Shown: positions 17,869-22,367 of the stretch, piece by piece
How positions within the stretch are numbered: the first letter of the stretch is position 1
Layout of the letters: every line of letters starts with the position of its first letter
NCBI RefSeq assembly: GCF_003334765.1
Contig: NZ_QOWT01000011.1
Origin: Escherichia coli
GTDB lineage: Bacteria > Pseudomonadota > Gammaproteobacteria > Enterobacterales > Enterobacteriaceae
Length of the DNA stretch: 64,000 nt
Reading direction: 5' to 3' (one strand)
The notes under the pieces: model-generated
The model's input: the letters and a program-made list of their open reading frames with translations, nothing else
What the model was told of the DNA's origin: nothing
Database searches by the model: none
Position numbers and translations under genes: made by a program

Positions 17869-18201
17869 ATGTATGAAGCTCTTTTAGTAGTTTTCCTTAT
17901 TGTGGCAATTGGCCTTGTTGGTCTGATCATGCTGCAGCAAGGTAAAGGCGCTGATATGGGAGCCTCCTTCGGAGCAGGCGCTTCCGCTACGCTGTTTGGT
18001 TCAAGTGGTTCTGGTAACTTCATGACCCGCATGACGGCGCTGCTGGCAACGTTATTCTTCATCATCAGTCTGGTGCTGGGTAACATCAATAGCAACAAAA
18101 CCAATAAAGGTAGCGAATGGGAAAATCTGAGTGCACCGGCGAAAACCGAACAAACTCAGCCAGCTGCTCCGGCTAAGCCGACCAGCGATATCCCGAACTA
18201 A
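17869..18201 (+). CDS. secG: Protein-export membrane protein SecG
   Basis: In-frame ATG at 17869 within ORF 17821..18201; 110 aa MYEALLVVFLIVAIGLVGLIMLQQGKG... Confidence 0.95.
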   Translation: MYEALLVVFLIVAIGLVGLIMLQQGKGADMGASFGAGASATLFGSSGSGNFMTRMTALLATLFFIISLVLGNINSNKTNKGSEWENLSAPAKTEQTQPAAPAKPTSDIPN

Positions 18202-18215
18202 AAAGTAGTATCCGT

Positions 18216-18302
18216 GCCGAGGTGGTGGAATTGGTAGACACGCTACCTTGAGGTGGTAGTGCCCAATAGGGCTTACGGGTTCAAGTCCCGTCCTCGGTAC
18301 CA
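18216..18302 (+). tRNA. leuU: tRNA-Leu (anticodon GAG)
   Basis: 87-nt sequence GCCGAGGTGGTGGAATTGGTAGACACGCTACCTTGAGGTGG...GGTACCA with long variable arm; anticodon loop CTTGAGG; encoded CCA. Confidence 0.95.
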
Positions 18303-18310
18303 AATTCCAG

Positions 18311-18339
18311 AAAAGAGACGCTGAAAAGCGTCTTTTTTC
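18311..18339 (+). terminator. Rho-independent terminator of the secG-leuU transcript
   Basis: agacgct-gaaa-agcgtct hairpin followed by TTTTTT. Confidence 0.8.
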
Positions 18340-18760
18340 GTTTTGGTCCTGGTCTGAGGAATGGTTGTCAGGTATCTGTATCTCGTCCAGTTGCTTTACT
18401 CGTAGCTGGTACCTTGAAACGATGGTGCCGGTACGCCTTAGTTATAAATTTTTCCCTTCTACTGACATAATTGGCACTTTATTGTGTCAACTCCAGTTCC
18501 GGTACGAATACGGATATGTTTACTTCTCGATAAACCATCCTGCTCCTGTCAGTATAACGACTGATGGCTACGTTCTGCGTAATGTTTAGAGACGCATTGA
18601 TAATGTTATTTAATTACTGAGAACGCAATGGCCGCATCATTTAAAAAGAAAAAACTAACAGTGTTTCGTTCTGATATGGATCAGAGTTGAAAAACATGTC
18701 TGATATAAAATTAAACATTGTTGATAATTGTTTATATTGGTTGTGAACTTGGATTTCTGG

Positions 18761-20386
18761 ATGACAGTATTCAACAAATTTGCTAGAACTTTTAAATCTC
18801 ATTGGTTGTTGTATCTTTGTGTTATTGTTTTTGGTATTACGAACTTAGTCGCTTCTTCCGGAGCGCATATGGTTCAGCGCTTGCTGTTCTTCGTTCTGAC
18901 CATCCTGGTTGTAAAACGTATATCATCCCTTCCGCTTCGCCTGCTTGTTGCCGCACCATTTGTGTTACTGACTGCGGCAGACATGAGTATTAGCCTCTAT
19001 TCATGGTGTACCTTTGGTACAACTTTCAATGATGGATTTGCGATTAGTGTGCTCCAGAGTGATCCGGATGAAGTTGTCAAAATGCTGGGGATGTATATCC
19101 CTTATCTATGTGCCTTTGCTTTTTTATCCCTTCTTTTTTTGGCAGTAATAATAAAATATGATGTTTCCTTGCCGACAAAAAAAGTGACAGGAATATTATT
19201 GCTGATTGTCATTTCGGGCAGTTTATTTTCCGCTTGTCAATTTGCTTATAAAGATGCAAAAAATAAAAAAGCGTTCAGTCCATATATACTAGCGTCGCGA
19301 TTTGCTACCTATACGCCGTTTTTCAATCTCAACTATTTTGCTTTAGCAGCGAAAGAGCATCAAAGATTACTCTCAATTGCAAACACGGTGCCGTATTTTC
19401 AATTATCAGTCAGGGATACAGGTATTGATACCTACGTGTTGATTGTGGGGGAGTCTGTACGTGTCGACAATATGTCTTTGTATGGATATACACGCTCTAC
19501 GACACCGCAAGTTGAAGCACAAAGAAAACAGATCAAACTGTTTAATCAAGCAATAAGCGGCGCACCTTACACTGCGCTGTCGGTTCCCCTTTCTTTAACT
19601 GCTGATTCTGTTTTGAGTCATGACATTCATAATTACCCCGACAACATTATTAATATGGCTAATCAAGCAGGATTTCAGACTTTCTGGCTAAGCTCGCAAT
19701 CCGCTTTTCGGCAGAATGGTACAGCAGTTACCAGTATCGCCATGCGCGCCATGGAAACAGTTTATGTCAGAGGATTTGATGAATTGTTGTTGCCGCATTT
19801 ATCGCAAGCATTACAGCAAAATACGCAGCAAAAGAAACTGATTGTTCTTCATTTAAATGGAAGCCATGAACCGTCTTGTAGCGCCTATCCGCAATCCAGC
19901 GCCGTGTTTCAACCGCAGGACGATCAGGATGCCTGCTATGACAACTCCATTCATTACACAGATAGTTTGCTAGGTCAGGTTTTTGAATTATTAAAAGATC
20001 GCCGCGCCTCGGTCATGTATTTTGCCGACCACGGCCTGGAACGTGACCCTACGAAGAAGAACGTCTATTTTCATGGAGGCAGGGAGGCTAGCCAGCAGGC
20101 ATATCATGTCCCGATGTTTATCTGGTATAGCCCCGTTCTTGGGGATGGCGTGGATCGCACAACGGAAAACAACATCTTTTCGACAGCTTACAATAATTAC
20201 CTTATTAATGCGTGGATGGGGGTAACAAAGCCGGAACAGCCGCAAACGCTTGAGGAAGTGATTGCACACTATAAAGGAGACTCACGGGTTGTGGATGCAA
20301 ACCATGATGTTTTCGATTATGTGATGCTCAGAAAGGAGTTTACAGAGGATAAGCAAGGTAACCCCACCCCTGAAGGGCAGGGTTGA
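18761..20386 (+). CDS. yhbX: Inner-membrane sulfatase/phosphoethanolamine-transferase-family protein YhbX
   Basis: ORF track 18728..20386; ATG at 18761 gives 541 aa MTVFNKFARTFKSHWLLYLCVIVF... with N-terminal TM segments and a C-terminal sulfatase-like domain; AT-rich gene. Confidence 0.9.
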   Translation: MTVFNKFARTFKSHWLLYLCVIVFGITNLVASSGAHMVQRLLFFVLTILVVKRISSLPLRLLVAAPFVLLTAADMSISLYSWCTFGTTFNDGFAISVLQSDPDEVVKMLGMYIPYLCAFAFLSLLFLAVIIKYDVSLPTKKVTGILLLIVISGSLFSACQFAYKDAKNKKAFSPYILASRFATYTPFFNLNYFALAAKEHQRLLSIANTVPYFQLSVRDTGIDTYVLIVGESVRVDNMSLYGYTRSTTPQVEAQRKQIKLFNQAISGAPYTALSVPLSLTADSVLSHDIHNYPDNIINMANQAGFQTFWLSSQSAFRQNGTAVTSIAMRAMETVYVRGFDELLLPHLSQALQQNTQQKKLIVLHLNGSHEPSCSAYPQSSAVFQPQDDQDACYDNSIHYTDSLLGQVFELLKDRRASVMYFADHGLERDPTKKNVYFHGGREASQQAYHVPMFIWYSPVLGDGVDRTTENNIFSTAYNNYLINAWMGVTKPEQPQTLEEVIAHYKGDSRVVDANHDVFDYVMLRKEFTEDKQGNPTPEGQG

Positions 20387-20393
20387 TGTCGAA

Positions 20394-21752
<1,359 letters not shown>

Positions 21753-22084: not shown

Positions 22085-22161
<77 letters not shown>

Positions 22162-22283
22162 CTTTCCCTTAGAGTCCTTTTTCAAATATACTGTGAAGAC
22201 TTCGGCCTTCGTAGTGGGATTTGAAAAAATCCTTCTGGAAAGTGCTCCAGACCGCAGTTGCGGTTATAGGGTTCAGTTATATA

Positions 22284-22309
22284 AAGCCCCGATTTATCGG
22301 GGTTTTTTG
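22284..22309 (+). terminator. Intrinsic (partial) terminator between metY and rimP
   Basis: ccccga-ttta-tcgggg hairpin followed by TTTTTT. Confidence 0.7.
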
Positions 22310-22367
22310 TTATCTGACTACAGAATAACTGGGCTTTAGGCCCTTTTTTTATGTCTTGGGGGTGGGC

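Follow-up and report, generated by a model that had tools for sequence, protein, structure and literature searches.

The gene yhbX and the spacer upstream of it very probably form a single-gene foreign cassette that entered Escherichia before the sampled lineages split, with loss of the argG terminator and a Rho-dependent end to the argG transcript. The cassette would consist of a 416-bp AT-rich spacer together with yhbX, a paralogue of EptA, EptB and CptA, lying in an insertion/replacement hot spot that separates the convergent units secG-leuU and argG. The detail of the terminator loss is new; the gene, the overlap and the argG 3′ end are already in public annotation or published data.

Positions given below are those of the window, that is, the whole 64-kb stretch of E. 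coli DNA that was analysed. Positions 18200-20500 are 100% identical to E. coli K-12 MG1655, and the two sets of coordinates were calibrated on the leuU Term-seq 3′ end (MG1655 3322072 = window 18302). The features discussed are as follows.

17869-18201, + strand: secG (gene call)
18216-18302, + strand: leuU, tRNA-Leu(GAG), the left conserved flank (ARAGORN, Rfam tRNA match, RefSeq annotation)
18310-18339, + strand: secG-leuU intrinsic terminator (terminator scan; terminator-like on both strands)
18345-20392, + strand: variable cassette, spacer plus yhbX, 2048 bp, GC 0.421 (blastn boundaries, genome counts, composition)
18345-18760, + strand: AT-rich spacer upstream of yhbX, 416 bp (GC 0.385)
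18631, - strand: Rho-dependent termination position of antisense RNA over 5′ yhbX (Adams et al. 2021)
18700-18728, + strand: predicted sigma-70-like promoter match, CTGATA-17-GATAAT, 9/12, the best upstream of yhbX (consensus scan)
18761-20386, + strand: yhbX, 541 aa (ORF, annotation)
20357, - strand: dominant 3′ end of argG mRNA (Adams et al. 2021 Term-seq)
20360-20384, - strand: argG-sense RNA hairpin, covering the last nine yhbX codons and the first base of the stop (fold energy)
20387-20393, no strand: spacer between the convergent stops, tgtcgaa, 7 nt (sequence)
20394-21737, - strand: argG, argininosuccinate synthase, the right conserved flank (ORF, annotation)

A variable cassette between leuU and argG

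Within the species, the cassette has discrete boundaries. Of 5426 complete E. coli genomes, 5179 carry it; in 237 an unrelated HTH-gene cassette (1168 bp, GC 0.372) is swapped exactly for positions 18345-20392, and 10 have neither cassette. By blastn, the homology between yhbX-type and HTH-type E. coli stops at 18344 and at 20393, which places the breakpoints at 18344/18345 and 20392/20393. On the left, the last conserved element ahead of the variable cassette is the secG-leuU terminator, which is present at every syntenic outgroup locus listed; the boundary falls after this terminator, so crossover did not take place in the tRNA gene itself. The cassette holds no integrase or transposase ORF, and at its junctions neither direct repeats nor att remnants derived from the tRNA reach significance, the alignments being no better than those of shuffles.

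Outside E. coli, the comparison covers at least 14 syntenic Enterobacteriaceae loci, including Citrobacter, Enterobacter, Kluyvera, Phytobacter, Pluralibacter, Superficieibacter and Pseudocitrobacter; Salmonella, Klebsiella, E. albertii, E. fergusonii and the cryptic clades are outside the sample. The order nusA-rimP-argG-[gap]-leuU-secG-glmM is kept in the 14 loci listed, and in none of these 14 does the argG-leuU gap contain a YhbX homologue. The gap measures 114-565 bp in 10 of them and holds other cargo in the remaining 4, and in most of the listed loci the gap is short and both terminators are intact. In these relatives, the hot spot is bounded by two intrinsic terminators with cargo inserted between them. 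The comparison documents leuU-argG as a cargo-swapping hot spot across the Enterobacteriaceae.

Base composition and the possible role of H-NS

The original prediction held that yhbX is AT-richer than its neighbours, and the GC and codon-adaptation calculations bear this out. Its GC content is 0.430 (z = -3.0; the 54 other long ORFs average 0.525, sd 0.032), the lowest value among the 55 long ORFs of the window. GC3 is also low (0.421 versus 0.556; z = -2.2, third lowest), and the codon-adaptation index, calculated with nusA, infB, pnp, ftsH, deaD, greA and obgE of the same window as the reference set, is 0.371 versus 0.547, tied for lowest. GC2 is ordinary (z = -0.9), and the low GC is therefore not explained by amino-acid composition alone.

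The upstream region had been described as an AT-rich leader. It is indeed AT-rich, with a GC content of 0.385, but this value lies inside the range of the other intergenic regions in the window (0.27-0.61), and the word leader is an assumption. Windows of 1 kb over the spacer and the 5′ part of yhbX are in the lowest 0.5-2% of GC in the 64 kb, with about 61% AT, and this region ranks among the two kilobases of the window with the highest AT content. The spacer (18345-18760) has no convincing ORF, neither blastn nor tblastx matches it to any locus compared, and an Rfam search of 18340-20393 returned no family match. Two segments within it, 18410-18429 and 18486-18505, resemble parts of leuU by chance, since 129 of 500 shuffles score equally. 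Sigma-70-like sites are no more numerous in the region than expected by chance (9 found, 7.3 expected). Only about 33 nt separate the best promoter-like match (18700-18728) from the yhbX ATG.

There is roughly an even chance that yhbX is kept silent by H-NS coating the spacer together with the 5′ part of the gene. H-NS prefers AT-rich sequence of this kind, and the kilobase concerned, at about 61% AT, is in the lowest 1-2% of GC in the window. In addition, Rho-limited antisense transcripts, which are reportedly typical of H-NS-bound foreign genes, are found inside yhbX. The antisense position at 18631 (MG1655 3321743, + strand, class "orphan") has a Rho score of 2.86 (p = 2.4e-5), with coverage upstream/downstream of 199/22 in untreated cells and 240/76 with bicyclomycin (Adams et al. 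2021). Weighing on the other side, the motif TCGATAAATT is not enriched (4 two-mismatch matches in 2 kb, compared with about 2.6 expected window-wide), and the overall GC of the cassette, at 42%, is milder than that of classic H-NS targets. The supplementary tables of one H-NS chromatin paper have no yhbX entry. We infer that yhbX may be expressed at a low level or silenced by H-NS.

Loss of the argG terminator and the new argG 3′ end

In Citrobacter, Kluyvera, Superficieibacter, Pseudocitrobacter and the HTH-type E. coli, a stem of the GGCCGC/GCGGCC type followed by a U tract is found 14-24 nt past the argG stop. The sequence of this ancestral terminator is AAAGGCCGCAAATGCGGCCTTTTTTT, and the fold z-scores are -4.0 and -2.8. 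The yhbX-type strains have lost the argG terminator, whereas the relatives and the HTH-type E. coli keep a canonical one; a consensus scan of the minus strand over 18340-20394 found no terminator-like site. In the yhbX-type arrangement, cassette DNA begins one base past the argG stop codon. With the argG terminator gone, RNA polymerase that has transcribed argG continues, in the antisense direction, into the 3′ end of yhbX.

The TGA of yhbX occupies 20384-20386 and the argG TAA, read as its complement, 20394-20396, so that the two stops are 7 bp apart, as predicted, with tgtcgaa (20387-20393) between them as read from the sequence. It had also been stated that no hairpin lies between the stops; this is true for the 7-nt spacer, but a strong hairpin in the argG sense (20360-20384) starts 9 nt past the argG stop. 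Its sequence is AACCCUGCCCU-UCA-GGGGUGGGGUU, giving 11 pairs of which 3 are G-U. It folds with an energy of -17.1 kcal/mol (z -2.26) in the argG sense, compared with -11.9 kcal/mol (z -0.15) on the + strand. The hairpin is invariant in 5 divergent alleles, and it falls in a C-terminal tail of YhbX that has no counterpart in any YhbX relative.

Published Term-seq data put the 3′ end of argG mRNA at MG1655 3320017, + strand (Adams et al. 2021, supplementary file 1). This corresponds to window position 20357, which is 3 nt past the hairpin, gives a 3′ UTR of 37 nt, and falls within the yhbX ORF, 30 nt from its end if the stop codon is included. A Rho score of 3.76 (p = 1.4e-7) is reported at MG1655 3320019, from one DirectRNA-seq experiment in LB with low coverage of about 50 reads (Adams et al. 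2021, supplementary file 2). With bicyclomycin, coverage at the argG end is higher downstream (212) than upstream (64) (Adams et al. 2021), which implies that antisense starts within yhbX, and not argG read-through, may account for part of the signal. The first 200 nt past the argG stop have a C/G ratio of about 1.6, and are in this respect rut-like. On this evidence, termination of argG within the end of yhbX would depend on Rho, and exonucleolytic trimming back to the hairpin would leave a stable argG mRNA that ends 3 nt after a strand-specific hairpin derived from the non-conserved YhbX tail.

It is unlikely that the hairpin at 20360-20384 is instead a weak intrinsic terminator, which would mean that Rho is not needed and that the overlap with yhbX extends for only about 30-40 nt. 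The 11-pair GC-rich stem is certainly stable, the tail ACCUUGCUUAUCC is moderately U-rich, and Term-seq finds a single sharp 3′ end; but no run of U follows it, the hairpin is not called in the consensus scan, and the 3′ end comes 3 nt past the stem, whereas 7-9 nt is usual for intrinsic terminators. The significant Rho score of 3.76 at this position, and the overlap that ExcludonFinder calls from coverage, likewise argue against this reading.

Overlap of the convergent transcripts

The proposal that the two convergent transcripts overlap is supported for argG, both by the published Term-seq end 30 nt inside yhbX and by the ExcludonFinder list (NAR 2025), which records argG-yhbX as convergent and overlapping in no fewer than half of 58 MG1655 RNA-seq sets. 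We consider it rather improbable that this tail-to-tail overlap is a functional excludon, in which high transcription of argG in arginine limitation lowers yhbX, or the reverse, by transcriptional interference or by RNase III cleavage of the RNA duplex. The pair does belong to the published E. coli excludome, the argG 3′ UTR is complementary to the final 30 nt of the yhbX ORF, and antisense RNA over yhbX is detectable, limited by Rho. However, reciprocal expression data for argG and yhbX were not found, and about 4% of E. coli strains are without yhbX while others have frameshifts or IS insertions in it, which means that any coupling between argG and yhbX is dispensable. The overlap is more simply seen as a by-product of the terminator loss.

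A somewhat bolder version has a still smaller chance of being right. After the arrival of yhbX and the loss of the argG terminator, the non-conserved YhbX tail may have been shaped into a strand-specific hairpin that stabilises the argG 3′ end, with arginine starvation down-regulating an envelope-modifying enzyme through the convergent transcription. If true, a foreign coding sequence would double as the 3′ end of a host gene.

Age and origin of yhbX

Relatives of YhbX were sought among 1.84 billion representative proteins. The nearest clusters outside E. coli are 41-48% identical, and come from Buttiauxella, Pectobacterium sp., Mixta and Microvirgula, whereas for ArgG the identity across the same genera is 94-97%. 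The Buttiauxella and Mixta relatives, for both of which the locus was looked up, are at unrelated loci. In the data analysed, yhbX is confined to E. coli and Shigella, and looking up the clusters brought out no sister species of Escherichia; a published tree of phosphoethanolamine transferases assigns YhbX to E. coli alone, and to neither Salmonella LT2 nor C. rodentium.

Between E. coli lineages, dS is 0.054-0.097 for yhbX, taking the four alleles that differ most, and 0.046-0.13 for argG, and since the divergence of yhbX among strains matches that of argG, the acquisition is old. The dN/dS of yhbX is 0.07-0.18. Some E. coli strains have frameshifts or IS insertions in the gene, which is under purifying selection, yet dispensable. 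The original prediction of an old, horizontally acquired gene is upheld by four independent lines, namely the composition, the replacement by the HTH cassette, the absence from the outgroups, and the relatives at 41-48% identity; its age fits a dS that matches argG. The cassette would have entered the Escherichia lineage ahead of the divergence of the sampled E. coli lineages, and since then would have diverged in step with core genes, under purifying selection in most strains and with sporadic knock-outs by frameshift or IS. We infer the order of these events; because E. albertii, E. fergusonii, the cryptic clades and Salmonella are outside the sample, the time of entry is only loosely bounded.

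That yhbX could be an ancestral enterobacterial gene, repeatedly lost elsewhere and low in GC as a result of T-rich membrane-protein sequence and weak expression, is disfavoured and highly improbable: the N-terminal third does encode a multi-pass membrane domain with a strong T excess (AT skew -0.24 to -0.33), the GC climbs toward the soluble domain (GC3 by thirds, 5′ to 3′, of 0.36, 0.40 and 0.50), and genes of low expression are poorly codon-adapted in any case, but GC3 is low too (z -2.2) while GC2 is not, the gene is missing at 14/14 syntenic outgroup loci listed, most of them with a short gap and both terminators, its relatives are far less similar than ArgG and the two that were looked up are elsewhere in the genome, and E. 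coli itself contains a discrete alternative cassette.

The YhbX protein

YhbX is predicted to be an inner-membrane protein with the sulfatase fold, belonging to the phosphoethanolamine-transferase superfamily. Residues 224-467 match Pfam PF00884 Sulfatase (E = 4e-56), residues 41-459 align with full-length N. meningitidis EptA (5fgn), including the membrane part, and the full-length NCBIfam models for EptA, CptA and EptB match from about residue 18-43 onward. The residues E231, T271, H369, D423-H424 and H438 align with the catalytic residues of EptA 5fgn and do not vary among 9 relatives, so that the Thr nucleophile and the metal (Zn) ligands Glu, Asp-His and His are retained.

As an orthologue of EptA, EptB or CptA, however, YhbX gave best scores of only 155, 142, 105 and 94 bits, versus NCBIfam cut-offs of 500, 404, 493 and 660; its scores overall (93-155 bits) are far below every curated cut-off (404-900). 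[quoted passage not shown]

Comparison with known systems

The case is an ordinary one and largely known, and does not overturn current understanding. It does provide a small and clean example of an acquired gene rewiring its neighbour, in which argG would now be reliant on Rho and on a hairpin within a foreign ORF.

The locus resembles tRNA-adjacent islets and insertion hot spots, in that atypical DNA lies by a tRNA gene between conserved core genes, and in that the leuU-argG site carries alternative cargo in different strains and genera; it differs from the islets in consisting of one gene, with no integrase and no att-like repeats. Like the targets of xenogeneic silencing by H-NS, the yhbX cassette is AT-rich and probably foreign and has Rho-limited antisense transcription, but its AT bias is moderate. 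The protein shares the N-terminal membrane domain and the PF00884 sulfatase fold with EptA (PmrC), EptB, CptA/EptC, OpgE and MCR, although it forms a cluster of its own, whose nearest relatives are less than 50% identical. As with the known convergent excludons, argG-yhbX is a listed pair and the argG 3′ end is inside yhbX; here, though, the overlap can be traced to the evolutionary loss of a terminator. Lastly, the argG end is similar to the Rho-dependent ends at which trimming of the RNA stops at a protective stem-loop (Dar and Sorek 2018; Adams et al. 2021), having a stable hairpin that lacks a U tract, a 3′ end a few nucleotides past the stem, C-rich and G-poor RNA downstream, and a significant effect of bicyclomycin. 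What sets it apart is that the stem-loop, to which the argG transcript is presumably trimmed, is part of the opposing gene's coding sequence.

Gene layout and base composition

The window is E. coli K-12, and its region 18200-20500 matches MG1655 and strains like it with 100% identity. The features of the locus are as follows.

17869-18201: secG, preceded in the local order by glmM
18216-18302: leuU, tRNA-Leu(GAG)
18310-18339: leuU terminator
416 bp between the leuU terminator and yhbX: spacer
18761-20386: yhbX, 541 aa, stop codon 20384-20386
20360-20384, argG-sense strand: hairpin, covering the last nine yhbX codons and the first base of the yhbX stop
20394-21737, strand opposite to yhbX: argG, seven bases from yhbX, stop codon 20394-20396

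The GC content of yhbX is the lowest among the 55 long ORFs of the window (0.430 against 0.525 +/- 0.032, z -3.0), its GC3 is the third lowest (0.421 against 0.556), and it ties for the lowest codon-adaptation index, calculated with seven transcription and translation genes within the window as the reference set. GC2 is unremarkable, so the low GC is not merely due to a hydrophobic protein. Within the gene, GC3 rises from 0.36 to 0.50. The spacer has a GC of 0.385, and the kilobase that takes in the spacer and the start of yhbX is one of the two AT-richest places in the 64 kb, the other being the yra fimbrial promoter region. This confirms the original prediction that yhbX and its upstream region are AT-rich, and the 7 bp that it gave between the two stops is exact. 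Beyond argG, the tRNA-Met gene metY (22085-22161) and a rimP leader (22250-22350; Rfam RF01770, 102 bits) precede rimP-nusA-infB, the usual arrangement of this operon.

A replaceable cassette

Spacer and yhbX together form a cassette (18345-20392) present in 5179 of 5426 complete E. coli genomes. At the same site, 237 of the 5426, and one Shigella boydii entry, carry instead a 1168-bp cassette that is just as AT-rich (GC 0.372) and unlike it in sequence content. This encodes, on the argG strand, a 317-aa protein with a Cro/C1-type HTH domain (Pfam HTH_19, E 5e-5) at its N-terminus only; the C-terminal 270 aa have no assigned domain, and there are no NCBIfam matches. Examples are L001 2646-3813 (E. 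coli ECCNB20-2) and L002, in which the HTH-protein gene is interrupted by IS1. Homology between the yhbX-type and HTH-type arrangements ends at 18344 and restarts at 20393, so that the AT-rich interval originally delimited, 18340-20393, is nearly exactly one replaceable unit. About ten genomes carry neither cassette, and one of the roughly 5190 cassette matches is on a plasmid record, not a chromosome.

Probable foreign origin

Outside E. coli, the order nusA-rimP-argG-[gap]-leuU-secG-glmM is kept at 14 listed loci of other Enterobacteriaceae, and in none of them does the gap encode a YhbX homologue. The gap measures 114-565 bp at ten of these loci and holds unrelated cargo of 1.7-3.6 kb at the other four (L008 7341-9084, L007 7332-10128, L015 7332-10921 and L026 7329-10635). 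The cargo differs among genera, which argues that the argG-leuU site is a general insertion hot spot. It comprises two ORFs in Kluyvera, four ORFs in GC-rich DNA (0.58) in "Escherichia sp. ESNIH1", and, in common between Pluralibacter and strain RIT691, one ORF for a 183-aa secreted protein and a second that is lipoprotein-like. The short "empty" gaps (L004, L005, L009, L013, L021) are occupied by what look like the REP/BIME-type palindromic units of E. coli (GCCTGATGCGCTACGCTTATCAGGCCTAC type), with about three tandem copies in Pseudocitrobacter. In Citrobacter youngae and C. werkmanii (L004 7962-11836; L005) there is also an insert of about 3.9 kb between secG and glmM, which are 227 bp apart in E. 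coli, with a LysR-type-regulator-like ORF and two large ORFs.

Among 1.84 billion representative proteins, the nearest outside the E. coli cluster are only 41-48% identical, with nothing in between; these come from Buttiauxella, a Pectobacterium sp., Mixta gaviniae and Microvirgula, and a Proteus relative has 34% identity. Across the same genera ArgG is 94-97% identical. In Buttiauxella and Mixta the neighbourhoods are unrelated to argG-leuU. The closest relative, in Buttiauxella noackiae (L084 6001-7551, 46% identity), also stands alone, with a men-operon/elaB-like block on one side and kdpFABC on the other, and is far poorer in GC than the surrounding DNA (0.426 against 0.516); the Mixta homologue has no AT bias (0.613 against 0.595). 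A published phosphoethanolamine transferase tree has YhbX in E. coli and absent for Salmonella LT2 and C. rodentium. Three comparisons, of E. coli genomes, outgroup loci and protein relatives, thus support the horizontal acquisition originally proposed and mark the cassette as apparently foreign.

The cassette shows neither an integrase or transposase gene nor a significant repeat at its flanks. Two spacer stretches resemble leuU, 18486-18505 its 3' end (16/20, one gap) and 18410-18429 its anticodon region (15/20); this is probably chance and not a real remnant, the resemblance being matched or beaten by 129 of 500 shuffles.

The 3' end of argG

In Citrobacter, Kluyvera, Superficieibacter and Pseudocitrobacter, a GGCCGC...GCGGCC stem with a U tract, a canonical intrinsic terminator, lies 14-24 nt after argG (fold z -2.8 in Citrobacter), and the Kluyvera cargo sits beyond it. 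Enterobacter has a similar stem and U tract that differ in sequence. The GGCCGC...GCGGCC element also occurs in HTH-type E. coli, as AAAGGCCGCAAATGCGGCCUUUUUUU (fold z -4.0). In yhbX-type E. coli it is missing: cassette DNA starts one base past the argG stop, and a terminator scan of the whole cassette found no terminator-like site on the argG strand. The yhbX arrangement also goes with a change of the terminal Lys of ArgG to Gln (last two codons, 20397-20402), the C-terminus of the protein reading ...NKGQ here, ...NKVK in strains of the HTH type and ...NK[A/G]K in the nearest genera (Citrobacter, Kluyvera, Phytobacter, Superficieibacter, Pseudocitrobacter). The breakpoint may therefore extend into these two codons, point substitutions being an equally good explanation.

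It had been stated that no hairpin lies between the convergent stops. This is incomplete, as a hairpin on the argG-sense strand, AACCCUGCCCU-UCA-GGGGUGGGGUU, begins nine bases past the argG stop, inside yhbX. Its eleven pairs give -17.1 kcal/mol (z -2.26); three of the eleven are G-U, so that the complementary strand forms only a weak fold (-11.9 kcal/mol, z -0.15). The part of YhbX encoded there is a C-terminal tail absent from all relatives. Term-seq data show one dominant 3' end, at MG1655 3320017 (+), classed as "primary argG / antisense yhbX" (Adams et al., eLife 2021). With window position taken as 3340374 minus the MG1655 coordinate, a conversion calibrated with the CCA end that this table gives for leuU, the 3' end falls at 20357, three bases past the hairpin and 30 nt into the ORF of yhbX. 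In the bicyclomycin experiment of that study, 3320019 is flagged as a Rho termination region (Rho score 3.76, p 1.4e-7), with upstream/downstream coverage of 50/44 in the absence of the drug and 64/212 in its presence. In the first 200 nt of RNA read through past argG, C outnumbers G by about 1.6 to 1. The lack of a U run, an end 3 nt from the stem, the C-rich downstream RNA and the Rho dependence suggest a Rho-dependent, stem-loop-protected end rather than an intrinsic terminator.

Independently, ExcludonFinder (NAR 2025) includes argG-yhbX in its 165 convergent pairs with overlap, which were seen in half or more of 58 RNA-seq sets from MG1655. No 3' end of the yhbX transcript itself is on record. 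Given this listing and the argG 3' end inside yhbX, the original conclusion that the two transcripts overlap is right, and was already published.

The spacer and possible silencing

The "420-bp AT-rich leader" of the original prediction is indeed AT-rich (416 bp), but nothing points to its being transcribed as a leader. Of the promoter-like sites upstream of yhbX, the best lies some 33 nt before the ATG; such sites do not exceed chance numbers in the region, and the spacer has neither an Rfam match nor similarity to other fetched sequences.

AT-rich sequence of this type is preferred by H-NS, and Rho-limited antisense RNA within AT-rich foreign genes is typical of H-NS targets. Silencing of yhbX by H-NS is a prediction from sequence that could as easily prove wrong as right. 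Matches to the high-affinity H-NS motif occur in the cassette at about the window-wide rate, which favours neither outcome. RNA antisense to 5' yhbX has a Rho-dependent end in the spacer at 18631 on the minus strand (Adams et al., eLife 2021; Rho score 2.86, 199/22 reads without drug), and in DirectRNA-seq in LB its coverage, 199 reads per 800 nt, exceeds that of the argG 3' region (50). Inside yhbX, at 19175-19148, the minus strand has a promoter-like sequence. In a genomic-SELEX study, RpoH holoenzyme gave a weak peak between leuU and yhbX.

Age and maintenance of yhbX

Four divergent E. coli alleles differ from K-12 by 1.7-2.6%, with a dS (0.054-0.097) similar to that of argG (0.046-0.13), so the cassette diverged together with the core, in keeping with the "old" acquisition first suggested. 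dN/dS is 0.07-0.18, against 0-0.04 for argG, which indicates purifying selection, weaker than on argG. All the catalytic residues of the EptA/MCR family are kept, YhbX scores far under every curated orthologue cut-off, and no substrate is reported in the literature found.

The gene is dispensable: it is broken by IS1 (matches H7, H115) or ISSen4 (match H86) in some strains, and two of five divergent alleles have an annotated frameshift. In an inverted repeat inside yhbX (19133-19184, CTTTTTTTGGCAGTAA / TTGCCGACAAAAAAAG), 20 nt separate a T7 run from an A7 run. The A7 run (19177-19183) is one A short in the frameshifted allele L091; another such allele, L087, lacks a G at 19141-19142, adjoining the T7 run. 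The repeat may be a mutational hot spot switching yhbX off.

Standing of the locus

The yhbX arrangement appears to have swapped the ancestral intrinsic terminator of argG for a Rho-dependent, hairpin-capped end inside a foreign ORF. This replacement, neat but minor, is the sole detail that we did not find stated elsewhere. Otherwise, the key transcript facts on argG-yhbX are already published, and what occupies this hot spot, in the bacterial genome studied most closely of all, is a single-gene islet of an ordinary kind.
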